This document shows, in pieces, positions 22,701 through 50,647 of a stretch of DNA of 64,000 bases. The notes under the pieces were generated by a model, which saw only the letters and a program-made list of their open reading frames with translations, was not told the DNA's origin and did no database searches. Origin of the DNA: Lytechinus pictus (lineage: Eukaryota); the NCBI RefSeq assembly GCF_037042905.1, contig NC_087250.1:9612001-9676000 (forward strand), in the 5' to 3' direction. A program made the translations under genes and the position numbers. Every line of letters begins with the position of its first letter. Position 1 is the first letter of the stretch.

Positions 22701-25700
22701 ATGGCTAGGATTTTAACCCACGACCCTCTGTTTGAAAGGCAAAAGTCAGAACCACTAGACCATGACACGCCCAAAACTCTTATCATAATCAGAGTGGTGA
22801 TGGTTGATATAATTTTTGTTTTACCTGATTGCTAAGAAAATTTGAATGCTTGTACGCAAGCATGCAGAGCGCAAAAGGGCTTGAATTCCTCTCTGAGGGA
22901 ACTGATGGTGTTTCCATAAAGCTGTTCATAATTTGTGTCAGTCAGTTATTCATTATTTACTGTAAATAATGATAATTTCAAATTAGAATGTCACACTGCT
23001 TTGTGGTCACGCCGTTTCAAAGCCATTTTTAGCAAGTTGTGAAAAGTGAGCCCCCTGAAAAATCAAAACCATATGCCTTCAACAAGGTAATCATTCCTTC
23101 CTGTTTTGCCGTATTTTTTATTGATTTAGAACCAAAAATACTTGTTCGTGGACAGATTTTCCATGTTTGATCGATACTGTTTTTCATCTCAAAATGTATT
23201 TTTCTTGTCCTTCAAATTACTACAATCAGGGGGATGTTTCACAAAGATTTAAGTATGACTTAAGTCGCACTTAAATGCCGACGCGTACATGATATGCAAC
23301 GCGGGGTCTTATTGATACATGTAGATACGCAGTAGTGCGCGTCCTCATGACACGATCTGTCCAATGCGGTCAAGCCTTTCATACCTTACGCAACTCGGTA
23401 TTTAAGTGCGACTCTAAGTCATACTCTACAAGCATACTCCTTCCTAATATGTACATGTATATACAGTGTATAAAACAAAGTATTATGCATTTATTTTAAA
23501 GTATGATACATCATTTGTATAATGTCTCATTTCTATACTTTGTAATTCTTGTATATTCTTGATTTTGCATGTTTTTAATGGAAAATAAATGAATTTAATT
23601 CAATTTAAAAAATACTTAAATCTTTGTGAAACACCCCTCTTGTTTGCGAAGTTGGTATCCTTGCTTCGAACCTTAACCTTGATATTTTTTTTTTCTGTGA
23701 TTCCGCAGCATCTCTACACATTTGCTATGGATAAGAAAGATGGGGTGGTGTCGGTAGAAGATGGCATCCGTAAGCTGAGGATACTGGACGCCAAGGGGAA
23801 GATCTGGTCGCAGGACGTCAGACTAATGGTCACAGAGAAGGAAGTGGTGCTGATGGATGAATATACTCAGGTAAATGTTTGTTTGTAGTCATCATTGCAT
23901 CGATTAAGCAACCAATATTTTTCAATTTTAATTCAAGTTTATTTTGCTCTCTGCATAAAATGAACATAATTGTGGTAAATACATGGGAACAAAGTTTACA
24001 TAACATCAAAGACATAAAAGTTTACCCCAAAAAAAAGCATTGAGAGGGAAACAGCCAAAAAGGAAAAAGAAATCCTTATAAAATGGCCGACCTAACTTAC
24101 TTTAAAAAGAATAATAATTATTGACAATATCAAAAGTAACAAAATATAAATAACAATAAGAAGACATTACAAAGGCATAGATACATAAGTGGTAAGATTT
24201 AGATTATATAAAAAAATATATTTACAAACATGTTTAATTATCAATTATGAAATTACGTTTACGTTACGTTTGAAAATATTAAATGAACGAGATGTTTTCA
24301 AATTAACCGGCAAAGAATTCCACAGTACTGGGCCACAAAAAAAAATAGATTTATGAGAAAGGCAATTTCTTATTTTAAGAAAGTGGATTAGCTTCAAAAG
24401 ATGTCTCAGATGACTCCTGTCTGACCTAAAGGATTGCAACTTACTGCATTAGCTGCAAGATTAAAATATTTATAATGAATTCAAACGCTGACATCACACC
24501 GACACAAAAAAGATATTACAATCTTTTGCGTTATGAGGTTGTCAATGAATTTGTGCCTTGTTCATCATTTACATCTAGTCATTACTGAACCAACACTCAC
24601 AATATTTAGGTTTTAACTGAGGCAGGCGTTAGTGGTAGCCATTGTTTTACCTTTGTTCTCAATGTGCTTACTACTGAATTCAGGGGTTACCGTAGGCTTT
24701 GAAAAGAGATCACCCGGTTGCATTATGTTTAACAGATTAAGATGCAGGGAGACGACAAAAAAAAACACTGAGTAGGTTACTTGCGTAGTTGATAGGGTTT
24801 TAGACTTAGAATGTTGCTGTTAAGACAGGACACACTATATCTCCTGCCATAGGCTGTGTATATTAGGATAGTCTTTATATACTTTCTTTTTTCAATAAAA
24901 AATCAAGACATATAATATTCAGTTTGGTTAAAAGGTATAATCCATTTTTCTTCCAGGAAACGTTAGAGGTGTTCCCACTGCAGGACATCGGAGCAGTCTC
25001 GGCCGAGTTAAAGCAGTGTAACTACGACAGTCTACTCGTCATCATTGTCAGATATACCAGCAAGAGAGTTCCAGAGATGATGATGTTCCAGTGCGAACAG
25101 ATCTCGGTGAGTACACTGCCAATGCAGGGAGTGGATAGCTCCCTTTTCACACCCCCAGAACAGAATATGAACATGTTTGTGTGGAAACTTTCATTGAGTG
25201 CTATTTGCAACAGTATTTCTGCATATTGTGAGGAGGACTAGAAGGAGAATGAGGTGAAGAAAATAAAGAGAAGGAGAAGGAGTGGGAAGGGGAGGAAAAG
25301 GAGGAGAAGGGAAAGGAATGGGAGAAATAGAAGACAAAAGAAGGGAGCGGATAAAGAGAAGGAGAAGAAGAGGAATTAGGAGGTGAACAAGATTGAGGTG
25401 GAGAAGAAGAAAGAGAAGGAGAAGAAGAATAAGGAGAAGGTGAAAGTGAAGGAGGAAGAGGAAGAGATGGGGAAAGAGAAGGAGAGGAAAGAAGACAGAG
25501 GATGAGGAAGAAAAGGAGGAGGATGAGGAATAAAGGGAGAGGAGAAGGAAAAGGGTGAAAAAACTCTCACTAGCATGTCATCTTTCTTTAATACACCACT
25601 TAGGAAAATAAGCTCACCATTTTGCAAAAAATGTTACATACATGTATGACAATTAAGCTTTCATGAAAGGGACCTAGCTGCATTGAAAATCTGTACTTAT

Positions 25701-37700: not shown

Positions 37701-40700
37701 TCAAATAAGTTCCCTGACTACTTTTCATTACAACAAACAGGAATTGTTTCTCGCCAAAGGGATAAATAGTAAAATGAAAGACTGGTATTAGTTATTCATG
37801 CAAGTTCCTTTTTTACTTTCCATTACAGCAAATGGGAATGGTATCTCACCAAGGGGGTTCCAGTCTCCTAAATCAGCTCCAGTAAGGTCAGCAGAGTCAG
37901 AGGAACCTATTGAGTTGCTTGCTATGAGGACAGAGAGAGATGTGGTAAGAGAAAACTTATTGAAATAATAGAAATAACCCTAACAACAAATTTTAATTGG
38001 AATAGGAAGATGGAGAAGAGTAAGACAGAAGAAGAGGAAGAAGAAGAAGGAGAAGAAGAAGATGAAGAAGACAGAGAAGAAGAAGGAGAAGAAGAAGTAG
38101 GAGGAGGAGGATGAGGAGAGGGAGCCATAAGGACACATAATAAGTAGAGGAAGAATAAATATACAAATTATTTATTCAAGTTGAAATATGCAGCAATGAA
38201 ATAAAAAAATGCTTCATGTAATGTTATCAATGTGAAGAATACATTTTATCACACCTACAAAGCCTACATATAATTGATATCCTGAATTTAATTTTCGCTA
38301 TTCACAGGAAATTCTAAATCACTGCTTCGATGACATTGAGGCATTCATCGGCAGACTACAGAAAGCTGCCGAGGCATACACAGAGCTAAGCCGGAGACGT
38401 CAGACCAGGAAGAATCGTCGGAGGGAACATGGTGATGGTCTCTTATTGGCTAGGTCAAGACCCCCTACGGATGGGGAATATATTGAGTGCTTCCAAAAGT
38501 TCAAATACTGTTTCAATTTACTGGTAAGTTTGTGAGCAGCACACATTCGATGAGAGGACTTATTCTTCGAATCTATCAAGTAGGGATAAGAAATTTTCTT
38601 TCTGGATTCCAAAGCCGGTCTGGTTTAAAAAAAAAAGGTTTTCAGATAGATGGATGTCAGAAATTTCAACCCAATAAACAAATAGAAATCAATCGATATT
38701 TCAGTTCCAAACAGTCAAAATTCTCTACAATAAATTAACTTTATAACGAAATTCATTTCCAGACCATAATCAAAGATATTGAAGCAGATAATATGTCTTA
38801 ACTCGCTTTCTGATCTAAAATGGCTATTCTGACAATGTCTCTTACCCTAGCTTGTGTAATACAGTGTGCAAATGAATTGGCCATAAGATTTATGATGCTG
38901 TACATGCACATGTATAATATTATTGTTATGTATCATTGATTCTACTATCAATCCACTCCAACTCTTTCTTACTTCTTCCAGGCAAAGCTGAAAGCCCACA
39001 TCCACGACCCCAACGCCCCCGAGCTGGTCCACTTCCTCTTCGTCCCCCTGAAGCTGATCATCCAGAGTTGTCAAGGTCCAGAACTCGCTGCCAGCGTGGT
39101 CTCTCCCCTTCTGAGCCCCCAGGCGGTGGACCTCCTACAGAACTGCCTCACGTCTCGAGAGAATGAGCTTTGGATGTCTCTTGGCAGGGCTTGGACCTTA
39201 CCATCGTAAGTAACCCTCAGCCTGTTCAGTCCTGGGGCCCGTCTTACAAAGAGTTGCGATTGATCCAATCACAAGTAACTCTATGGAAATACATCAGTGC
39301 CATAACTTTTTTTCTACAGGAAATTTGCAAAATATCCTTTGTAAACAAAGGAGAACACACCAAATTATTAAGAAATCAATGAATTCATGGATATACATTC
39401 ATATCTAGAAAATCTTTTGAACAAACATGCATTTTATATGTTGACTTAGCTGGCTGTCCATAGTTGCGATTGATCGGATCAATCACAACTCTTTGTAAGA
39501 CGGGGCCCAGGATTCTTCAGGCATCTTGTCAAATTGTTGTCTGTGCGAAATCTATTAACAGGAATCCTGTATAATTATCCTATGAATCTTTTCACGGTGA
39601 CCCGACATTTGCTCCTGCGAAAATTGCTCCTGGCTTCAATTTGTCTAAGATGTGGGGTTGGGGTTGCAGTAGGGTTTTATGTTAGGTTTAGGGTAGGGTA
39701 TAGTGTTAATCTAGGGTTGAAGTTGGCGATTCTATTAATGTGTGGAGTCTAGAGTGGAGCAATTGTCGCTGGAGTAAATGTTGTGGAACCCTTTCATAGT
39801 GTCTTTCCTGCATTCCCTCTAAATTAACGTGTAGAAATCTAACGATCGATTATGGAAAGCAGCTTGCAGGAATCCTTCAGGAAAGACGTGGCTGTGAAAA
39901 GCCTTGTGGGATTCCTTTGGGAAAGGCATGGCTCTCATATTTGATTTGTTGTCCTTGGGCTAATACTCGCATGGTTGTCTTGAAATTAAGTGTAATTTTA
40001 TTTCTTTTTTTTTATATTATGTTGGAAAATCTGTTAATCTTGAATAAAGTTCTGAACTATGGTTTAATTCAAACTCTGTTATGAAGTTATGGTTTATCTA
40101 TGGATAGCCAATTGTGACACAAATCAATATATTTGCAATTCATCAGCTCATGTGACCCTAAATTCACTCAGACACTCTGGGAATAATGACTAAAACAGTT
40201 TTTTTCAAGCAAGTACAAGGTAAGAGCACAGTAAATAATAATAATAATAATAATATAGGGTATTTATATTTCGCACATATCCACCTTGTTAGGTGCTCAA
40301 GGCGCTCCTATATTACCCGGCTAAGCTAGGCGTTCATAGCGCACACAGGTTTTTAAGGAATTACTTCCTACCGGTACCCATTCACCTCACCTGGGTTGAG
40401 TGCAGCACAGTGTGAATCAGTTTCTTGCTGAAGGAAATTACGCCATGGCTGGGATTCGAACCCACGACCCTCTGTTTCAAAGTCCGAAGACTAATCCACT
40501 GGGCCACAACGCCATCTATATGTACATTGTTTTGACAAAGTTTACTCTCCATAACCCTTGCACAGGGATAGACCATTGACTTTGGAATATGGGCCTACAA
40601 TACATGTATGTAACAAATCTACCATGTTGATTTAGTTCAGTTGAAATACCATACACTCTCATGCAGCATTACCGATAATCTTGTACCATTAATCCCTGCA

Positions 40701-43700
40701 GAACCGAATGGCCCAAGGATCGCCCCGTCTCCCGCTACGTCCCGCGCTTCCGCGATGGATGGACACCGAGACCTATCACTGAACCCCAGACTCATCAAGA
40801 CTTCAATACCAGCGTGCTGGTCAACAATGCGTCAGTTGCCGCCAGTGCTGCTGCAGTGGCTCGGGAGTCGCCAAGGAGGCTCTCTGAGAGGGTAAGAGAG
40901 ATTGGGCTTTGATAGAGATATATTGCTGGTCAATGAAAAATGTGTGTGAAAGCATAATCGGTTAGTCTTAAACAGTTCGAGTAACTATGAGATATCTCAA
41001 ACAAATTCATGACAAAGTTTTTTATCCTTTCTTGATTGAATTCCATTAAGTATGGTGTACATTGAATTGCTTGCATTAGAAAGATGATAAACAAGTAATT
41101 TTATTCATGAATATGAAGTAGCAAAGCATTGTATATTGCACACAACTGTGAATTTTAATGTGACTTTTATAGTCACCTTTCAATCTTTAGTGGAACACCT
41201 AATATATATAAACCTATGATGGTACTATAATTTTCCAATAATGATGAATTAGCAAGGGAGCATCGTGGTGTACCGGTTCTGACTCTCACCTTGTAATCAG
41301 AGGGTCATGTGTTTGAATCCCACCATGGCCTATAGCATCCTTTGGCAAGGCATCAATCCAAAATTTGCCACTCTCGACCCAGGTGTTAATGGGTACCTGG
41401 GAGTGGAGAAGGTGCATACATTGTATGCGGGCATGCCAGGATCTAATGACTGGGGTAATAATATATCTGTAAAGCGCTTAGAGATGTCATTCCGATGTAT
41501 TTAGCGCTATATAAAAGTGGATTGTTATTATTACTTGATTATCTGCTGAGCCTTGTGACCAGAGTAGGAAGTCCTCAATAATACAGACCCTGGATTTTCT
41601 TCTCCGAAAGTAAAATCCTCCCTTGTCCCTTCCCTTTCTTTAATTTCGCAGAGCGATCAAGCGGACGGCCCGGTTTTCGGCCACAACCATCAAAGGCAAC
41701 CTTCCAACGATAGCGGACACATCGCTAACGGGCCGATCATCCATAGCAACGGGCCCAATGCCCACTCAAATGGACCCAGTACTCACACGAACGGTCCAGC
41801 TACTCACACAAACGGGCCCATCGGTCACTCACATGGACCTTCCATCCATGCTAATGGGAACGGTTACCATCAGCGACAGACCTCGGACCCATTGGCCCAT
41901 AGTCCTAGGTAAGATTTTAGGCATTGGTTCACATTAATAATCATTACCATAATTCCCCTTAGGCAAGAATATCTGAAGACAACGAAAATGAAAAGATTCA
42001 ACAATCCCTTCAAATCCCTGTTGCAAAAATTTCTTGCAAAACCTTTTATATTCAGATCAGAAATAGTAAAAGGTTCAGATAAATATTTTTTTTGGGTGTA
42101 CTTTAATCTTTTTTTCTGTTCTTCTTACATAGGACTTCAGCAGTTCCTACCCCTCCCCCTCCAGCTCCGAAGCCAGTATCCAGCCCCACCCCTACCCGCC
42201 CTGGGGCCAAGATGGCGACCGCCATCTTTGATTTCGTCGCACGCAACTTCAAAGAGCTGACCATTATGGCAGATGAACAACTTGAGGTAAATATATTGAG
42301 ATAAGTAGTGGAATCCGAGTAATCATAATAGGCATTAATGCATGTATGTATGAATGACTTTGTGATATTTGACTAATTAAGCAAAAATTCTTCAAAGAGC
42401 TAACCATCATTTCTCCTGAAGATAACAAGAACACACTTGTCAAAACGTCGAGTTTGGGTTGTCCTTCTCAGGACCAACACTTGTTCTAGAAAGATACATG
42501 ATGTCCCGTGAAACCTACTACATTATCCTTCTTCGCCATGGAAACCTTCAGAAGTTACAACAAAATTTCCTCTTCAGTGAAAGACTTGCTGAAATTCCTT
42601 TACCTTAATCAAATAATGATTTATGTTTACAGGAAAAAGTTTAAAGTTTACAGGACTGATGTTACAAAATCATATCAACAGTTTAAAAAATTTGTTAGTA
42701 TCAACTTCTTGTAGGTTCTTGTCTAGGCCAAGATATATACTGCTTTAAACATTGTGAGCATCGACATCAATTAATGATACCTTTCTCTTCTCTGACAGGT
42801 GTTAAATGACCAACGTAAGTGGTGGGAGGTCAGGAATACCTCAGGCCAGTCTGGTTACGTTCCCTCAACGCTCCTCAAGATTACCTCACCCTCTCCAAAC
42901 ACCAACACCAACTCAAATCACGTCCCAGAGCCGCCAAACACGCTACCGCCCCCTCCTCCATCTATGTCAACGTTTGGAGTGAGTATACATGTTGGTGCAA
43001 TAGGATTGTAAACGTATGTGACCTGCCCCCCAAAACCAGCAATAAGTCAACCAAATTGATTATTGCAACTTCTATTGAGCTTAAGAATTCACTTCCTAAG
43101 CTTTAAAATGATATATACATGTAATATGTTAAAATTTACCAACAATAACCATTACAAGTACTTGATTGAATGCAGAGGAAACTTTGCAAGAGCTTGTTTG
43201 GGGTTCACTCAAGCATGAGATGTGCATACCGAGTAATCTCAGTGAAACTTCCAAGCAGTCCAAAAAAGATGTGTCCAAGAAACTCTTGTATCCTTTCTTT
43301 TATTCAACTTCAAATTTCACAGTATGAAGAAGAATTGCTCTTTCAGATAAGCTATTTTTTTATTTTTGGTTTTTAGAGACTAATTACTCTAATTTTGGCT
43401 ATTTACAGTGATCCTTCCCTGACGGCTTATTGGTGATTTTGGGGTGGTATGTCACATATGTACATGTATTCCTGCTTTCTCTATTGAAATGGTAGGATTA
43501 GACAAAGAAGTGAAGGGGCCGAGTTGCTTTTGTGATTGACAATTGTAATTGTAATGTCCCCTAGTCTCACTAAGGTCCCGTTACACTAAGGTTAGCGATT
43601 AATTGCATGCTTTATTTTCTTGATTAATCATACAATGGAGTCAATGCAATCAATCATAAACAATGTTCTACAGCGATTGCTAAGTTTGTGTTGCAGGTCA

Positions 43701-46700
43701 CAGGATAGTTTTTCATGAAAGGTGTCAGATTCAACAAATTTTTCTCTGGAAATGAATTGTGCTGTGCTTGCTCGCTTTGTGATGCATACTAAAGTTGGTT
43801 ATATTTTTTTGGTTGTTGTTTTAGGCCCCGCCCCCTCCTCCACCACCACCCCCAGCCGACGGGTCAGGTAGACCAAATTCAACTCAAAGTAAGTATCACT
43901 CTAGTTATGTAATTATCTACTAAATTGTACTATTTTGTCTTTTCGTATTTGTTAATTTCTTTGATCTTTGTTTCTTTTTTTTCTTCTTTTTTTTTGAGGC
44001 TCTAAATCTATTTTTTTCCTGTTTTTCTTTTCTTTGATTTTTGAGGGTTTGTTCGTACATGTAATTGCTTTTGTCCTTTCCTTTAACCTTCCGCCCTTCA
44101 ATCTCGTCTCCATTTCTAATATTAATACTAATAATGTTATATTTTTACCCAGGGTAGCCACTTCAGTTCTGAAAACTGTTCTACCAGCTGGCCCTGCTTA
44201 ACATCATAATGTTTTTCCTTCTTTATATCTCTTTATTTTGTGTTTACTGTGGATTTGTTTCTGTTTCATTCTTTATTTATTGCCCTTAGAATGCTTTGAA
44301 ATAAGTTGGCTTACATGTATATATAAACAGTGAGAGTAAATAATAGAACTTCAGATATATTTCATTCTTGGTTTCGTAGAGATTAGTTTATACATGAACT
44401 CAGAAGTAGTTATTTATCTGTGTTACCATTCTTTTTTACTTACTGTTTTTTTTTCTTACTATGTTTCTTCAAGTACCCAAGGGTTGTAATCAGCACTTGA
44501 AATGCAACATTGACACCGTTTTCTTTATACTTTCTAAAACTAGTTTACTGGAAATCGGTTCAGGAAACCGGTTTGGAAGATCGCTTTGCTAGCGTTCCCA
44601 TTTGATCAGCCGCAAGTGTTTTTTGAAACCACTTCACATAATGTGGCTTTGTTGCTATGAGAACGCTGTCAGTGGGGGTGACATGTTTTGCGCAAAATTT
44701 GAAATTGCAGCGTGGACATTCTACACACAGTGTGTGGAGGAGCGCGCTTTAAATGTGCGAAGATTGCTTCCGAAAAACGGTTGTGTCCTCACGCTAAAAC
44801 AAGTTTAACAAGGGAAAGCAATCTTGAAAACTACATTGGGAGGTGGTTTTTTGAACTGGTTTGGAAGATCACTTCCAATACTGCTTGGACCGTTCTCATT
44901 ACAAGTTAAACTAGTTTCCACTAAACTGGTTTTAGGGCGGTAATGAGAACGGGGTCATGATAATCAGCCTTTATTGGTTGTTCTTTTCTTTTGATTGTTT
45001 CTTAATGATTTATTATCTTTCAGAAGCAAATGGTATGGACTTTGCCACGCAGCTCCAAAACACATTAAAGAACAAACAGTTAAGACCATCAAAGACACAG
45101 GACAGAGGTGAGTGGTACCAGCATGAACCAACTCTAAAGTTAAATAAATTTAGTTGCGGTAAATACTGATTTCAAGAGAAAGCCTGTAAAACCAAGGTTA
45201 ATTGTCACTACACCAATGTAAATCTAAATCTGATGCAGTTATATCAAATGGACTTTGTGAAAAACGATCACACTGAATGAATTCCTGATTTAACTTTAAG
45301 TGATCAGTTTAATTTACATTTTATTAGCATGTGGGCAACTCAAAAAAAAATAATCCCTTTTTCCTTCGTCCCACCTCCATTTCACTCGATTCTTCCTGTA
45401 CTTGTGTGATGTGCTCAGGTCCTCATAATTTCTAAGCATTACAATTTTTCAAGTGAACTAGAAAACACAGACAATTTATTCCAGTTAAGTACCACATGTA
45501 GACGAACAGATGTACAATTTTTTGGGGGGAATTTCCCATTGTCAACTGATATCATTTTAAAGTGTACAAGTAATTGAAATGATTTCAATACATTTACCCC
45601 AGCGACAACATGGCGAACATGGATAATCAGAATAATTTTATTACATTTAAGCTGGCGGTTTCTTGGAGTATTTTGATGTCTACACCATACATGCCATACA
45701 ATGAACTCTTTGATATCTCTTAAATTATCCTAATCATCAGATTTTTTAACCAAGAACACTAATCCAATCCTCACCCTAATACTTCATCCCCAGAAAAATT
45801 ATGACAGAAAGATAATTGTTGAAATAGTTTTCACATTACTAATTTATCATCATAACGGTTTTTATATTAAAGCTAAGTTCAAGTTCTGGTATAGAAACTT
45901 AATTTTGTTAGGAAATAGTTGGAAGCAATCTTAAAGTATTTGCCGTATGCCAGAATGCTTATTTAGAACAACAAAGTTTAATTAAAATAATTCAGGCTTG
46001 CTAGAGCGGGGGTTTCAGATTCCAGTGACCCGGGTTCAATTCCCACTTGGTGCGCTAGTGCCCTTTGGTAAGGCATTCATCCCCATTAGTAGGTCCCTCT
46101 GAGAGGACCTTAAGCCGTCGATTCTCTGGTTGCTTGCTTACAAGCATTCATGCTTTCTTAGCAATCAGATACAAAAATCACCACTATAACCATATTACTA
46201 CATGCTTTTCCTGGTGCGTAGCTAATACAGGAAACATCGTGTGGGACCACATCGTGATAGAAAAGCATTTTTCAGTAATTTTTCTGATCTTCTATTGCTT
46301 ATTATTACTCTGTAATTATTCATTGTCCTGAAAGATCATTTCATAAATTTCATTTATAGTTTTTATAATTGAATGGAAGTTTTGTTCTGTGACTGTGAAC
46401 ACAAAATTTTCTGTTGTTACCAGTACCAGAGTTTACCTTTAAATATTTTATCATCTGTCTGCAGCATTGTCATCTAGCAGTCAGTACGACACCCTCCAGG
46501 AAGAGCTCAAGAATCGCGTCAGCAACGGAGGAAAGGCAAAGAATTACCGCATTCCAAGGCGAAGTATCAGCGATGTCTCCCTGACGTACGATTCTGGTCG
46601 GGACGATGTGAAGAGATGGCTTGAATCCAAAGGTTTCAGTCCCATGTAAGTTGTCTGGAATGATGGCTGGTAGAAAGAGAAATACAGAGGGTAGTAGTGA

Positions 46701-49700
46701 CAGAGTGTGAGAAAGCTAGTTGATTTAAATGAATTAAGTATTTTTGGAAATGCCCCTACCCCTACCAACTCCCTTCCTATCTTCCCATAAAGATAATATA
46801 GAAAAACATCAGATGTTAGCAGTCTAGACTCTAAATTCTGATATTGGACACCGATCACCGATACCATGTCTTTGCTTTATACCATTCCATTCTAATGTAC
46901 ACCTTATCACATAGGACTGTGCACAGTCTTCAAATTCTGAATGGTGCCCAGTTGTTTAGTCTAATCAAAGAATTGTGTATGTTCATGCCATCATCTCCAT
47001 TATTTGGTAAGATTCTGGAAAGAGTCTATTCTTTGAGATTGATATAATTTCTCTTGTTCATACCATCCCATTCTTATGTACACCTTATCACAAAGGACTG
47101 TGCACAGTCTTGGAATCTTGAATGGTGCCCAGTTGTTTAATCCAAGCAAAGAAGTGTGTATATTTATGCCATCACCTCCATTTTTTTTTAGATTCTGGAA
47201 AGAGTCTAATCTTGGAGATTGATATAATTTCTTGTGCTTATTATGTATCATTCTTATGTACACCTTATATGATATGAATGTGCACAGTCTTGGCATCTTG
47301 AATGCTGCCAAGTTGTTTAGTCTAAGCAAAGAAGTGTGCATGTTCATGCCATGATCTCCTTTATTTCTTAAGATTCTGGATGGAGTCTTATAGATTAGAT
47401 TGATATCATTTCTCTGGCTTATACTGTCCCATTCTTATGTACACGTTATCGTATAGGACTGTGCACAGTCTTGGAATCTTGAATGGTGCCCAGTTGTTCA
47501 GCCTTACCAAGGAAGAACTGCAGCAGGTTTGTCACGACGATGGCTCCAGGGTATACTCCCAGCTCATGATCCAGAAAGCTGCTCTACAGGTAACTTTCCA
47601 GACCAGACTTTAAGGGGGTTGTTGCACATAGTTGTAGTTGATTGCGAAATTATGTTGCAATCTATTGCATAATTGTGATGTAATTGATTGCATAATTATG
47701 GCGCAAGTAATTGCAAAATAATGATGTAATTGATTGCGAAATTATGTTGCAATCTATTGCATAATTATATTGCAATTGATTGCAAAATTATGATGTAATT
47801 GATTGCGAAACTATGATGCAAGTTTTTGCAAAATTATGTAATTTATTGCAAAATTGTAGTGCGATTGATTGCATTATTATGATGTAATTGATTTCAAAAT
47901 TGTGCTGCAATTGATTGCATAATAACATGACAATCGATTGCATATTTATTTTGCAATTGATTGCAAAAATATGTTGCACTTTTGTGTAAGCTTGTTTTAT
48001 TTGGTATAATGCACCTTACATGTTTAAAAGTGTCTTCACTTTGTTCATCATTCATCACTCACAATGTTGATCATCACTTAGTGACTTAGTGTAATAAAGA
48101 ATCAATAAAAGGGAACCGACTAGAAAAATATGGAAATAATGATGGTAGAAATAAAATCATAATAGATAATGAAAAGCAACAATAAAGAAGAAATTAAAAA
48201 TGAAAATGAATGAAGAAATAATTGGATGAATGAACATATGAATAACTAAGTAAATCCATAAATAAATGAATACATAAATAATGCATAGATAAATAAATAA
48301 AAAAATAAGTGAATAAGAAATAAAAATAAATAAGTTTATGAAATAAATGAATAGAAGTATTTGAAAGAATATTATATAGAAACATGAAGCACATGAAGTA
48401 AAACAATAAATCAGGTATTAAATAATAAAATGAAATAAAAAAAAATCATAATTGCCAAAATCTAAGGGCTTATGAACCAGTGCCACACCTTTTACCCTTC
48501 CAATTTCTGGCTTGCTACACACAATGTATGGAATGCCTAATGTCCCAGCAAAATTTGCTCAGAAATTTACTCCATCATCCATCCATCATGATAATTTAAC
48601 TCAATATATATTTTGCTGTTCAATGACAAAAGGAAGGAATTCTTTTCTTTTCACAATGGACTTTTTCAATCTGCAGAGTTGCTTCCTTTTGTCATTGGAC
48701 TGCATTATGGATGTTAGGGCATGCTGCGTTATGTGTGCATGTACATTTTGTTTTTCGGTCAGTCCTATATGAATATGTTAATTCTGTGCTCCCCAAAGTT
48801 GTTAATTGCACTAAATAATCGAAAACATTAATTCCGTTTATAGATATTAATTTTTCGGGCATACAAAAAAATTGGGGTTTCAGTGTTATGTAATGTCATT
48901 TCATCACATACCCTCATATTATTTTATATACTCTTCATTGAATTCATATATACACATAGATTCTAGTTTGAGGAGTTAATCATGAAACATGAGGGGAACG
49001 ATTTGAATTCAATTAGATATTGCTTTGGGATTCAGAAAATGAAATAGCTTTTGACCAATACTCTGGTAATTGGTTGATAGAGAGGCTGACATGTCAGTGG
49101 TTTACAGCTTAACACAGATTGCAAAACATGAAAAGTTCAGAAAGGTACAAGTTTGCACACAATTTTCTGTTACAAAATGCAACACAGAAAGACTATTTTG
49201 AAAGGGGTATATACATGTAAATCTGGCAGATGTATGCCTTATATTCATAATCATTGTCATTTTCTGTATTAATTTTTTTTTTATTCCAATTGAATTAATA
49301 TGTAGACCAATACAATACTGCAACTAGTTCGTAGATTCCTGGTGTAATTGTGGATTTTCTGTAATTTTGTTGCAAAGTGTTTTTTACTTTTAACACATTT
49401 AACACACACGTACATACATGTATACCCCTAATACATATCAGCCGGTATTTATAATTAATAGTTGCACATGCTTTTCCCCCATGTGCCTACGGTGGTCCTT
49501 TTAAAATTATGATATATGTTCAATATTCCATCCACTAATATTGTAGTAACCCTTTCATGATGTATGGTATCCCTGTGTGTATTTGTTTTGTCCATGTATA
49601 TTATAAGGGGGATGTGTGATAATTTGATATTAGCCTTTTAGTTTTTAAATAATCCCTAATATATATATTTTTTTCAAATTTTAAAGAAATTGATGTTTTG

Positions 49701-50647
49701 TAAATGAAAATACCCATCTCTGCTCTCTTATTTTTGGTTCATGGAACAAAGGGTTTATTTATTTATTTATTTTTTTTTTTTTTGTTTAGTGTTGTTAATC
49801 AAAATAGTCTTTGGAATTTATGGAATTTAAGTTGTAACCATATTTTTTTCAAATATCAGAAAAAGATATTGCAAATGCAACTATTTTGTTTCTCCTTTTT
49901 CGGGGCTTACTTTGTACTGCTTTTTCATACAATCATAGACCTTCAAATTTGTCAGGTTTTTAAAAATACATATTTGGGCAGCAATTTTATTTGTAATTTT
50001 ATCAGTTATGTATATATATGTAATTTTTTTTGGGGGGGGCAATTTTTTATTAATTATGCTTTTTTTTTTTTTTTTTTTTGAAATCAGTGTCTTTCAGAAT
50101 TGTCAGTTTTCAAATTAATCAGTTAGTTAAAGAAAGATATTAGTAAGAGGAAATTATGTTACCATTTTTTTTACAGATAGGCCTAAATTTTAACTTCCCT
50201 TTATTTAATAATTGATATTCAACATTTCCAGGACATTTTTTTGTTTGTCTAACTGATCAGTTATATAACTCAATCAGTTGTTGAAGAACATTGCAAATTT
50301 GATAATTGCAGTTTACCTATGACTTTGAAAATGTTCAGGGTTTTTTTTGGGGGGGGGGTTGATCAGTTTTCGTGGAGTTTTTCCTTCAAATTGATCTGTT
50401 ACAGGAATTAATGTTGCCAATTTGATGATCCCTTCTTAGAAATAATGATCAGATAGCACGCTTATTGTGGCATGTTGGTGTGTGCACCTATCTTTTTCTT
50501 TCCCAGGAGGAGCAAAACGGAAAGTCTGAGCTCGACGCCATTATGATGCAACGTAAATCACGGGTCCTCGACGAGACCCTTCCCCCGCCCGATTTCATCC
50601 CGGAAACGCCTCCGGTTTTCGATTCACCTACAGGTAGACATCATTGA
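19722..50647 (+). CDS. EPS8: EPS8-family (EGFR kinase substrate 8-like) gene, 19 coding exons, about 1002 aa
   Basis: Manually spliced exons all have GT-AG borders and compatible phases, totalling 3009 nt. The translation shows EPS8 hallmarks: [24 protein letters not shown] (PTB), [44 protein letters not shown]3 FDFVARN..EL...WWEVRN.SG.SGYVP, and effector [40 protein letters not shown]. Confidence 0.96.
20280..20439. mobile_element. CWG-flanked MITE (Harbinger-like)
   Basis: CAG|ggcctcgttgcataaaagttac...gtaacttttatgcattggggcc|CAG. Relatives lie at 59174-59323 and about 50838-50985. Confidence 0.85.
21006..21133 (+). CDS. EPS8: EPS8 coding exon 2 ([15 protein letters not shown]...KGHY)
   Basis: Polypyrimidine tract plus caacag, donor gtaggt, open frame, phase 2 to 1. 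Confidence 0.78.
21177..21395. mobile_element. Small MITE-like inverted-repeat element
   Basis: ttagtaactcg..tccggaccagtccc / gggcctggtgcgga..cgaattactgaa. Confidence 0.55.
21986..22245 (+). CDS. EPS8: EPS8 coding exon 3 (His/Gln/Pro-rich, ends RFPVE at start of PTB)
   Basis: Acceptor tgcag, donor gtaagg. VE continues into HL of the next exon, matching the EPS8 VEHL motif. Confidence 0.9.
22257..22505. repeat. (GAT/GGT)n microsatellite in intron 3
   Basis: Seen directly, starting 11 nt after the donor. Confidence 0.95.
22485..22772 (-). mobile_element. tRNA-derived SINE with CORE-like centre
   Basis: The reverse strand has A box tggtctagtgg, a B-box-like ggttaaaatcc and core ccaggtgaggtgaatgggtac. 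Homologous to 34927. Confidence 0.85.
23230..23637. mobile_element. Harbinger-like MITE interrupted by a retroposon 3' end
   Basis: TIRs gggatgtttcacaaagatttaagtat / atacttaaatctttgtgaaacaccc. The insert at 23426-23611 is flanked by atact repeats. Confidence 0.85.
23709..23870 (+). CDS. EPS8: EPS8 coding exon 4 (PTB domain)
   Basis: [39 protein letters not shown]..., 162 nt, AG/GT borders. Confidence 0.96.
24060..24385 (-). mobile_element. CR1/L2-type LINE 3' fragment
   Basis: Minus strand reads [28 protein letters not shown], typical of an ORF2 C-terminus. Confidence 0.7.
24957..25106 (+). CDS. EPS8: EPS8 coding exon 5 (PTB domain)
   Basis: ETLEVFPL...[10 protein letters not shown]...[12 protein letters not shown], borders ttccag / gtgagt. 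Confidence 0.95.
25230..25560. repeat. Purine-rich (GAG/GAA) low-complexity tract
   Basis: Seen directly in the sequence. Confidence 0.9.
26311..26592 (-). mobile_element. tRNA-derived SINE
   Basis: Reverse strand: ggagcgttgtggcccagtggattagtctccggactttgaaacagagggtcgtgggttcgaatccc (A and B boxes), core, and (tta)n tail. Confidence 0.9.
26647..26720 (+). CDS. EPS8: EPS8 coding exon 6 (end of [27 protein letters not shown])
   Basis: Borders ttccag / gtaggc, phase 0 to 2, completes the PTB C-terminal helix. Confidence 0.88.
26746..27016. mobile_element. MITE family A (ggccccgtcttacaaagagtt.cgattgatcc TIRs)
   Basis: An inverted full copy lies at 39235-39507, and the same ends occur at 61572/62658. 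Confidence 0.92.
27020..27148. mobile_element. MITE family B
   Basis: ccataacacaaaggttagcaatt...ttgctaagttttgtgttacg. Copies at about 43574-43700 and 57131-57261. Confidence 0.85.
27152..27302. mobile_element. MITE family C, CTG target duplication
   Basis: CTG|gtgggtatattcatgaagctgtttgtaa...ttacaaacagctttatgaaac..cccac|CTG. Relative at 33988-34151. Confidence 0.85.
27306..27432. mobile_element. Internally deleted copy of the 23230 MITE family
   Basis: gggtgttgcacaaagatttaagt / catacttaaatctttgtgaaacaccc. Confidence 0.85.
27480..27922. mobile_element. MITE-like element
   Basis: TIRs ccagttcgtagtt / aactacgaactgg. Confidence 0.6.
28011..28585. mobile_element. Diverged 23230-family MITE containing a nested MITE (28042-28256) and its inverted partial duplicate (28259-28395)
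   Basis: Outer ends tttcacag..gtgtgacttag / taagagcgactccaagtc..tttgtgaaacccc. Inner TIR gttgcaagaaa.ttgcgatcaattgcaa. Confidence 0.8.
29304..29592. mobile_element. MITE related to the 15111 termini, with an internal 119-bp tandem duplication
   Basis: Ends cagagctgcca / tggcagctatg. 29348-29461 is repeated at 29467-29582. Confidence 0.65.
31308..31397. promoter_or_regulatory. Candidate intronic enhancer: RFX X-box plus DR1 nuclear receptor site
   Basis: GTTACCCATGGCAAC at 31308-31322 and TGACCTTTGACCT at 31385-31397. Motif match only. Confidence 0.35.
33040..33550. repeat. Degenerate tandem repeat
   Basis: Recurrent agaa.ggtatc...gggg..tgtactt and ctactctaaatct blocks. Confidence 0.65.
33988..34151. 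mobile_element. MITE family C copy (palindromic)
   Basis: tttcataaagctgttcgtaatttaagagcgactttaagaatgactgg / ccagtcgttcttaaagtcgctcttaacttacgaaccgctttatgaaa. Confidence 0.88.
34927..35093 (+). mobile_element. tRNA-derived SINE (3'-truncated)
   Basis: Has the A box, a degenerate B box and core gcactcgacccaggtgaggtgaatgggtacc. Confidence 0.88.
35392..35609 (+). CDS. EPS8: EPS8 coding exon 7 ([13 protein letters not shown]...VKNKVAAF)
   Basis: Resembles the EPS8 IPPPPRAPAP...VRSRVAAW segment, phase 2 to 1. The donor is ag|gtacat. Confidence 0.9.
35638..36276. mobile_element. Old TIR element (same family as 43012) with a nested MITE at about 35752-35923
   Basis: atgtgacc..ccccaaacca.caataagtc is shared with 43016. 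The nested element has TIRs tttccc.tacg.c.g.cgta.gg.gagt.gaaaca / tgtttctgacttgccgtacgtctgccgtaggggaaa. Confidence 0.6.
37829..37944 (+). CDS. EPS8: EPS8 coding exon 8 (...[16 protein letters not shown])
   Basis: Borders ttacag / gtaaga. Ends in RDV as in EPS8 ARIDRDV. Confidence 0.92.
38308..38523 (+). CDS. EPS8: EPS8 coding exon 9 ([11 protein letters not shown]...[11 protein letters not shown])
   Basis: Highly conserved central domain, borders cacag / gtaagt. Confidence 0.97.
38982..39205 (+). CDS. EPS8: EPS8 coding exon 10 ([20 protein letters not shown]...LWMSLGRAW)
   Basis: Conserved central domain, borders ttccag / gtaagt. Confidence 0.97.
39235..39507. mobile_element. MITE family A, inverted relative to 26746
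   Basis: Full-length reverse-complement similarity. Confidence 0.92.
39596..39790. mobile_element. Small TIR element with (t)taggg-like interior
   Basis: acatttgctcctgcgaaaattgctcc / ggagcaattgtcgctggagtaaatgt. Confidence 0.75.
40234..40514 (-). mobile_element. Full-length tRNA-derived SINE
   Basis: Has A and B boxes (tggcccagtgg, ggttcgaatccc), core and (tta)n tail. Confidence 0.92.
40702..40891 (+). CDS. EPS8: EPS8 coding exon 11 ([15 protein letters not shown])
   Basis: Matches EPS8 EWPKE..YVPRFRNGWEP, borders ctgcag / gtaaga. Confidence 0.95.
41256..41533 (+). mobile_element. tRNA-derived SINE with L2-like tail
   Basis: Head ggagcatcgtggtgtaccggtt..gtttgaatccc, core ctcgacccaggtg..aatgggtacc, tail tgtaaagcgcttaga. 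Confidence 0.88.
41652..41908 (+). CDS. EPS8: EPS8 coding exon 12 (HxNGP heptad-repeat linker)
   Basis: Borders cgcag / gtaaga. Open frame with phase 0 to 2 is needed to join exons 11 and 13. Confidence 0.88.
42133..42286 (+). CDS. EPS8: EPS8 coding exon 13 (Pro-rich plus SH3 N-terminal half)
   Basis: [22 protein letters not shown], borders catag / gtaaat. Confidence 0.95.
42412..42560 (+). mobile_element. Possible Penelope-like element terminal fragment
   Basis: cctgaaga-t-aacaag-aacaca-cttgtc-aaaacgtcg resembles the hammerhead-bearing pLTR motif ctgaNga..cgaaacg. Confidence 0.5.
42799..42978 (+). CDS. EPS8: EPS8 coding exon 14 (SH3 C-terminal half)
   Basis: [26 protein letters not shown], borders gacag / gtgagt. 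Confidence 0.96.
43012..43461. mobile_element. MITE-like element
   Basis: tatgtgacctgccccccaaaaccagcaataagtc / ggcttattggtgattttggggtggtatgtcacata. Confidence 0.7.
43825..43888 (+). CDS. EPS8: EPS8 coding exon 15 ([21 protein letters not shown])
   Basis: Borders ttttag / gtaagt, phase 0 to 1. A possible in-frame alternative donor follows 43867. Confidence 0.85.
44512..44956. mobile_element. MITE, second copy of the 7090 family
   Basis: Colinear similarity to 7090-7552. Confidence 0.92.
45024..45107 (+). CDS. EPS8: EPS8 coding exon 16 ([27 protein letters not shown])
   Basis: Strong tttcag / gtgagt borders, 84 nt, symmetric phase 1-1, open frame. Confidence 0.8.
45995..46180 (+). mobile_element. 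Second SINE family (tRNA-like B box ggttcaattcc)
   Basis: The tail cttagcaatcag.ta.aaa recurs at about 22815-22865 (inverted) and about 32590. Confidence 0.65.
46465..46645 (+). CDS. EPS8: EPS8 coding exon 17 (effector region: [10 protein letters not shown]...[17 protein letters not shown])
   Basis: Matches EPS8 VQDELIHRL...ITYDSTPEDVKTWLQSKGF, borders ctgcag / gtaagt. Confidence 0.96.
46860..47456 (+). repeat. Three decayed tandem copies (about 181 bp) of exon-18 acceptor plus exon start
   Basis: ga.tgtgcacagtctt...tgaatg.tgcc.agttgttta at 46915, 47096 and 47276, versus the true exon at 47457. Confidence 0.95.
47457..47589 (+). CDS. EPS8: EPS8 coding exon 18 (SAM-like: [25 protein letters not shown]...QKAALQ)
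   Basis: Near-identical to the EPS8 effector helices, borders tatag / gtaact. Confidence 0.96.
47614..47980. repeat. 22-bp minisatellite (ttgattgcaaaattatgttgcaa-like) starting at a MITE-like GGGG terminus
   Basis: About 15 units seen directly. Confidence 0.85.
50507..50647 (+). CDS. EPS8: EPS8 coding exon 19 ([17 protein letters not shown]...GRHH*)
   Basis: Acceptor tcccag. [10 protein letters not shown] resembles EPS8 SELQEIMRRR. Stop at 50645-50647, but cag|gtagac at 50633 could be a donor to an unidentified last exon. Confidence 0.88.
   Translation, partial: EEQNGKSELDAIMMQRKSRVLDETLPPPDFIPETPPVFDSPTGRHH

Follow-up and report, generated by a model that had tools for sequence, protein, structure and literature searches.

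A tandem array of 3' splice-site copies within a SAM-domain intron of the Lytechinus pictus EPS8 gene

We analysed a window of 64,000 nucleotides (nt) from Lytechinus pictus (NCBI RefSeq assembly GCF_037042905.1, contig NC_087250.1, positions 9,612,001 to 9,676,000 of the forward strand; coordinates below count from the first letter of this window). It contains a gene of the EPS8 family in which one intron carries three extra copies of a segment of about 181 bp. Each copy combines the end of that intron, with its 3' splice site, and the first part of the exon that follows. In the RNA that we aligned, the intron leaves in one piece and takes all of the copies with it. Here we describe the array, follow its splicing and its divergence, and weigh the ways in which it may have arisen and persisted.

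The host gene and the anatomy of the array

Pfam scanning confirmed the domain order of an EPS8 protein, PTB, EPS8 spectrin-like, SH3 and C-terminal SAM_3, all on the forward strand (Table 1). Family matches were found in four of the 85 open frames scanned, together with separate SH3 pieces. The L. pictus EPS8-like protein agrees with the window's frames letter for letter over long stretches. The array lies between the two exons that encode the SAM domain. The downstream one, which we call the true exon, codes for the second half of the domain (SAM_3, E 1.2e-13) and aligns with the SAM domain of human EPS8 (PDB 2e8m, E 1.8e-13) over query residues 1-43 with one gap of one residue. The upstream exon covers SAM_3 positions 3-25 at E 2e-4, under the Pfam cut-off. 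Its segment 46467-46643 is 98% identical to isoform X3 of the NCBI L. pictus EPS8-like protein and 68% identical to the protein of Diadema setosum. It ends at the donor CAT/GTAAGT, which agrees with the consensus at 8 of 9 places. Its start carries some ambiguity, as the AG at 46463-64 is also compatible with the end of the preceding exon.

The earlier note, made from the letters alone, had placed units of about 181 bp at 46915, 47096 and 47276, ahead of the true exon at 47457, each with about 120 nt of intron and about 58 nt of exon. Tandem Repeats Finder and direct reading bore this out. The program reports a single array at 46887-47498 (period 181, 3.4 copies, 83% matches, 0% indels, score 844), and the true exon occupies the fourth unit start. 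By our measurement each unit holds ~58 nt of exon start, ~65 nt of middle sequence and ~58 nt of acceptor-proximal intron, the last two making up ~123 nt of intron-like sequence. The acceptor-proximal parts agree with the intron before the real acceptor at 44-48 of 58 places. Two units apart, 46860-47154 pairs with 47221-47515 over 295 nt at 80%. The copies are direct, run head to tail and include coding sequence of the adjacent exon, as copies made by tandem duplication do. Their exon-like parts match the true exon at 49-51 of 58 places, and the similarity stops ~58 nt into the exon; immediately beyond this edge the true exon has a purine-rich GGAAGAA.

The array is confined to this locus in every search that we made. 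With up to 3 mismatches allowed, a 34-nt word from the exon start has three occurrences in the window (47099, 47279 and 47460), compared with none in 100 shuffles, and a metagenome scan with the same word gave no matches. A DNA search of the 811-Mb assembly with the 181-bp unit returned one match, the array locus. In the protein search of the assembly with the exon, the four matches were the true exon and the three copies, and no paralogue was found. The ~65-nt middle of the unit is likewise confined to the array.

The three copies differ in the state of their splice signals, and direct reading agrees with the earlier note on each of them. The piece that forms the left edge of the repeat contains a branch-point-like CTAAT and a catag acceptor (AG at 46913-14), behind which the frame of copy 1 stays open up to a stop at 47045-47. 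Copy 1 alone also has a GT, at 47007-08 (TTG/GTAAGA); at the homologous place copy 2 has TTTTTAGA and copy 3 has TCTTAAGA. Copy 1 is thus the only one in which an AG and a GT enclose a cassette that would bring in a premature stop. Inclusion of its 92 nt would shift the frame, as the earlier note had claimed. The stop would fall at 47480-82, 107 nt before the junction 47589/50508. On sequence grounds copy 1 is a plausible 92-nt frameshifting exon, copy 2 is weakened and copy 3 dead.

These features bring up the first alternative, in which copy 1 would be a regulated poison exon that exposes the transcript to nonsense-mediated decay (NMD) and so tunes EPS8 dosage, or else truncates the SAM bundle. 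The intact AG, the CTAAT, a GTAAGA donor that neither of the other copies has, and the distance from stop to junction all suit such a role. The donor TTGGTAAGA, however, agrees with the consensus at 6 of 9 places, compared with 8 of 9 for the real donors (we judged splice-site strength by consensus counts only). Taking this together with the RNA and divergence data below, we regard a regulated poison exon as unlikely.

Table 1. Features of the EPS8 locus in window coordinates
Feature	Position	Strand	Basis or remark
PTB domain (PF08416)	23589-25238	+	Pfam
EPS8 spectrin-like domain (PF22975)	38278-39206	+	Pfam
SH3 domain	42107-43011	+	Pfam
SAM_3 domain (PF18016)	46443-47589	+	Pfam
Upstream coding exon (linker and SAM start)	46465-46645	+	Aligned RNA contigs of X3 and X1 span 46463 to 46645/6
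Array-bearing intron, 811 nt	46646-47456	+	GT..AG; excised in one piece (RNA joint 46645>47457)
Acceptor-proximal piece before copy 1 (left repeat edge)	46857-46914	+	44/58 match to the 58 nt before the true exon; repeat pairing starts at 46860
Decoy copy 1, 181 nt	46915-47095	+	AG kept; 49/58 match to the true exon
Candidate cryptic cassette, 92 nt	46915-47006	+	AG 46913-14 and GT 47007-08; from sequence only, not seen in RNA
44-nt identity run	47094-47137	+	Equals 47455-47498 (AG and first 42 nt of the true exon)
Decoy copy 2, 180 nt	47096-47275	+	Acceptor aaag, AG 47094-95; no GT at the place of the copy 1 donor
Decoy copy 3, 181 nt	47276-47456	+	AG lost, atat at 47272-75; tail holds the true acceptor region
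True SAM exon, 133 nt	47457-47589	+	Both bounds from RNA contigs; donor CAG/GTAACT
Next coding exon	50508-50633	+	RNA joins it to 47589; X3 and X21 have loose ends behind 47590 that match 50508 onwards

Splicing across the array

Four sequencing runs were aligned to the locus at 80% likeness. Those that contain RNA are X3 and X1, both sets of assembled contigs, and X21, a raw, ribo-depleted run of which about 6 in 100 reads were sampled, giving 15 aligned reads. All three runs have a single joint across the array-bearing intron, 46645>47457, which skips 811 nt from GT to AG. It is carried at depth 223.4 in X3, at depth 45.4 in X1 and by one raw read in X21. Two X3 records aligned. One is a contig of 3227 nt at depth 223, which covers 46463-46645, resumes at 47457-47590 and leaves the exon at 47589/90 into sequence matching 50508 onwards. 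Between 46660 and 47424, X3 has no depth in any bin. No X21 read lies in the array; those other than the junction read map to one of the two exons or to a short repeat at 46352-46387.

The earlier note had proposed a search for the junctions 46645-46915, 46645-47096 and 47006-47457, with and without inhibition of NMD. No joint at 46915, 47006 or 47096 is listed in the two contig sets or the sample of about 6% of a raw run, none of which is an NMD-blocked sample. This speaks against a poison exon to the extent that such data can, since contig sets drop rare forms, a gap in depth is no proof of absence and a single raw junction read sets no limit on a minor isoform.

Annotated proteins agree with the RNA. 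The L. pictus cluster has eight members, of which seven are long isoforms from two annotation rounds and one is a fragment of 183 amino acids. All seven long isoforms cross directly from the residues of 46643 to those of 47458, as read by eye, and the Diadema setosum orthologue crosses the junction in the same way. The peptide of copy 1 is in none of these seven isoforms and in no protein of the collection searched (proteins over 77 amino acids; nine candidates, none scored), which is a further point against a poison exon, and the peptide in the frame of copy 2 gave no candidate among proteins of similar length. From the joint, the seven isoforms and the alignment to the human SAM domain, the copies are missing from the mature mRNA and the protein is unchanged. 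Nor was a new intron gained, as the copies sit inside the pre-existing intron 46646-47456 and the RNA contig shows no extra one. The annotated isoforms have two different ends directly after the SAM exon (P0001, P0005 and P0008 as opposed to P0003, P0004, P0007 and P0009). The long form runs into the exon at 50508 and the short form has ~18 other residues there, which implies an alternative last exon.

Unspliced sequence is present at low depth. In X1, two contigs (depths 5.2 and 5.9) run from the upstream exon through copies 1-3 into the true exon, and they are either unspliced transcript or a little DNA. They allow a look at a second alternative, in which the copies would serve as decoy exons or acceptors that bind U2AF and U2 without being spliced, slow the removal of the intron and so hold back EPS8 pre-mRNA. 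One intron does hold three sequences close to a working polypyrimidine tract and branch region, the unspliced contigs do span the whole of it, and a decoy-exon model has been published (PMC6097662). The depth of the array-bearing intron is nevertheless close to the 3.4 of the neighbouring upstream intron, with exon contigs at ~48-55. These are contig means rather than local values and make a weak test, on which the array intron is not specially retained. The sequence of the array also drifts neutrally (see below). We hold this role for the copies to be quite improbable.

The same contigs bear on whether the array is real. Tandem repeats are a classic source of misassembly, and the array might be a product of assembly or collapse, or a private variant of a single haplotype. 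However, the units differ from one another by 17-25% and are easily placed, and the same arrangement is found in a second organism. Read support, on which the earlier note had made its case depend, is also at hand. The X1 contigs 46617-47123 and 47108-47484 cover the three copies with no differing letters (the independence of X1 from the assembly is uncertain), and X2, another run, contains 0.90 of the sampled words. In addition, X1 breaks at 47108-47123 and has a separate 42-nt contig at 47457-47498, which is the behaviour of a de Bruijn assembler towards a 42-mer that occurs in two contexts and hence independent support for the repeat. The array is genuine, and an artefact or private variant is exceedingly unlikely.

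Divergence of the copies and their presence in a second organism

If the copies had a function in splicing, their exon-like parts and acceptors might be conserved above the surrounding intron. They are not. Over the first 42 exon-like nt there are 4 differences from the true exon in copy 1 and 4 in copy 3, and 8 between these two copies. Agreement is 41-48 of 58 places in the intron-like parts and 48-55 of 65 in the middle parts. Because protein selection keeps the true exon from changing, setting a decoy against it measures one branch, while in the intron-like and middle parts both branches are free to change. Read in this way, change amounts to ~10% per branch in all three parts alike, with no sign of protection in the exon-like parts or acceptors of any copy. 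This suggests that the array copies are in neutral decay, and the drift of the exon-like part of copy 1 at the intron rate (4/42) is a point against its use as a poison exon.

Copy 2 stands apart in one respect. It is identical to the true exon at all 42 of the first 42 nt, and with the AG ahead of them the identity runs over 44 nt, a length reached by 52 of 20,000 shuffles of its match vector. The flanks of this run are ordinary (48/58 upstream and 9/16 downstream). The simplest reading is that the run is probably a short gene-conversion tract shared with the true exon.

The earlier note had also called for a comparison across species, and this became possible with DNA from an organism B, which the run table labels differently from organism A, that of the window. 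A 586-nt contig of B aligns in turn as 47366-47479, 46938-47028, 7 other letters, and 47216-47609. In the register of the units these pieces correspond to an acceptor region with exon start, the next part of a unit, the end of a unit, one more complete copy and the true exon, so that B has at least two decoys upstream of its true exon. A second B contig lies over 46978-47072 with other letters and may be a third copy or an allele. At 80% likeness a piece of B aligns to the best-matching unit, which is not necessarily the orthologous one, and the differing letters discussed here are among those listed. Occurrence in a second organism would also suit a poison exon.

The B copy that adjoins the true exon differs from copy 3 of A at about 1 place in 5. 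It too has no AG, and it lost it by other letters (gg in place of at, 47274-75). At 47278, 47305 and 47310, where copy 3 of A departs from the other units, the B copy carries the letter of the other units. The different loss of the AG and the letters at these three places indicate that decay has been independent in the two lineages. Over the exon 46444-46652, B differs from A at 11 of 209 places, and the five differences listed all fall on third codon positions by our own arithmetic. The neutral distance between A and B is thus large and the array predates their split; judged from these alignments, it dates back at least to a split that has left substantial neutral divergence.

The letters of B also turned up in a run labelled as the window's organism. 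At the third codon positions 46484, 46508, 46556 and 46595, X21 carries the letters of the organism B DNA, and eight of its 15 aligned reads are under 90% alike. The animal behind X21 is clearly not the assembled haplotype.

Two candidates for hidden genes in the array were rejected. A scan for RNA families (Rfam, E<=1) gave 15 matches, none in 46887-47498, all far under the gathering scores and all within 47640-48080, in or just beyond a 23-bp repeat downstream. An antisense open frame of 144 amino acids (47000-47434, minus strand) has no Pfam family at E<=1 and no X21 reads, and what keeps it open is the length of copy 2, 180 nt, a multiple of three.

Other repeats were seen around the array. 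The 23-bp repeat is a partly palindromic minisatellite at 47631-47978 (15.3 copies, 71% matches) that starts 42 nt beyond the SAM exon's donor; its hairpin potential explains why it draws sub-threshold, miRNA-like Rfam matches. Its relatives elsewhere in the assembly are weak (two contigs, C15 and C5, at 69-84% identity). Further into the intron after the SAM exon, 48150-48450 is A/T-rich with overlapping short-period repeats (periods 4, 15, 25 and 27). Upstream of the array, two short intronic stretches at 46352-46387 and 46395-46442 collect a pile-up of foreign reads and contigs with loose ends on both sides (X21 depth 6.4, with the reads in the direction opposite to the gene; summed depth ~470 in a further run, X9). 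These stretches are probably fragments of dispersed repeats. The linker exon of EPS8 at 41650-41912 contains degenerate, pentapeptide-like repeats of His, Asn, Gly and Pro without a Pfam family; it is identical in the L. pictus protein and shorter in Diadema.

Origin of the array, known systems and significance

In our favoured explanation, which we consider probable, the array is an intronised tandem duplication that spans a 3' splice site and stays silent because splicing uses the last acceptor. A segment of 181 bp spanning the 3' splice site of the second SAM exon, with ~123 nt of intron and ~58 nt of exon, would have been duplicated in tandem and the duplicate then amplified to three extra copies. 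The donor at 46646 would pair with the last acceptor, 47456/47457, so that all copies leave with the intron and the protein is unchanged. Such a duplication would be harmless at once, because the intact exon and its donor stay downstream and the extra copies are removed. The intron would have been lengthened by 542 nt. Neutral drift would then have removed the AG of copy 3, weakened that of copy 2 to AAG and left that of copy 1 in place beside a chance GT, and a short gene-conversion event with the true exon would have reset the first 42 nt of copy 2.

We infer the reason why the upstream acceptors are passed over from what the copies lack. They carry 58 nt of exon only, without the GGAAGAA and the strong donor at 47590, and this is the likely reason for their skipping. 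With no donor in copies 2 and 3 and a donor of 6/9 in copy 1, the real exon should win under exon definition. Occasional use of copy 1 would be splicing noise cleared by NMD.

Several observations weigh against this explanation. By its letters alone the acceptor of copy 1 equals the real one, and a usable donor follows 92 nt later, so complete skipping is not self-evident: copy 1 has 12 pyrimidines among 20 places at -23 to -4, equal to the true acceptor, it ends in TAG/G, and its CTAAT is if anything better than the CTTAT of the true site. The RNA is shallow where it counts, with one raw junction read, and a poison isoform would be masked by NMD. Constraint instead of conversion could account for the 44-nt identity of copy 2. 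One B copy seems to keep its AG (the piece has no differing letters), and the survival of the array across the split together with this AG is something that a neutral model allows rather than predicts. Lastly, local alignment of the ~65-nt middle with the rest of the exon, the downstream intron and the upstream intron found no significant source, the scores being reached by 28 to 481 of 500 shuffles.

In a bolder reading, the array would be a conserved splicing-control module of sea urchin EPS8, with copy 1 as a poison exon regulated by stage or tissue, or with the three pseudo-acceptors as decoys. In both forms it would determine the amount of productive EPS8 mRNA. A single step of tandem duplication would have created such a module out of the acceptor of the gene itself, and gene conversion with the true exon would keep it partly fresh. 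Evidence on both of its forms has been given above, and we find the module improbable. The earlier note had proposed competition between acceptors and a poison exon. Its structural part stands, in that the units are indeed copies of the acceptor and exon start; the functional part finds no support in the RNA, annotation and conservation examined, which do not refute it, and a rare poison isoform removed by NMD may still exist.

Three reports (PMC3265369, PMC3443670, PMC4974935) describe how splicing can remove a redundant tandem duplicate and leave the peptide unaltered, and partial duplications of gene segments are common according to one of them (PMC4974935, citing Gao and Lynch 2009). The nearest parallel is the Rogers model of intron gain, re-enacted with minigenes on ATP2A2 exons (Hellsten et al. 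2011, PMC3265369; reviewed in PMC3443670). There a short tandem duplication inside a gene takes in coding sequence, the duplicated splice signals allow removal of the extra copy from the transcript, and the event can spread almost neutrally. The model begins with duplication of an exonic AGGT and ends in the birth of a new intron, whereas in EPS8 the duplication spans an existing 3' splice site, lengthens an old intron and is present in three copies. An intron gain in potato RdRp (PMC4974935) involved a segment similarly composed of polypyrimidine tract, branch site, 3' splice site and exon sequence. There both acceptors are used and a cryptic donor in the upstream copy of the exon makes an additional intron, whereas the upstream copies of EPS8 are skipped in the RNA seen.

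The decoy exons of Parra et al. 2018 (PMC6097662) are also cryptic, seldom spliced exon-like elements within introns that have real splice signals and bring in a premature stop when included. They are highly conserved, lie mostly in retained introns of over 1 kb and demonstrably cause retention. The EPS8 array, in contrast, drifts neutrally in an intron of 811 nt that shows no excess retention in X1.

Among the open-access papers that our searches listed, we found none on such an EPS8 array or on an EPS8 poison exon. An engineered relative is reportedly the work of Reed and Maniatis in 1986, in which duplicated sites of beta-globin are said to have competed in vitro, the site with more exon behind it winning. 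Those constructs share with the EPS8 array 3' splice sites in tandem that differ in the length of exon behind them, and the array differs in being natural, old and multi-copy. Internal tandem duplications with splice sites are a known kind of event, and the EPS8 array is an amplified, old example in the exon of a conserved domain.

What is known of EPS8 function is unaffected by the array, and a specialist would be surprised only if copy 1 proved to be used. Its interest lies in splicing, where it amounts to a natural experiment on acceptor choice in cis. An upstream acceptor with an equal polypyrimidine tract, a branch-point motif no worse than the real one, the same AG/G and 38-42 of the first 42 exon bases is skipped for the last copy, so the information that decides between them should lie beyond exon base +58 or at the donor. 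Splice-site prediction models could be tested cleanly on this locus, and so could exon definition in sea urchin embryos. The identical tract of copy 2 hints that a coding exon and the copy of it in the intron may have exchanged sequence. For the evolution of such genes, the array indicates that a duplication cutting into a conserved coding exon can be harmless from its first generation and can persist across a species split.

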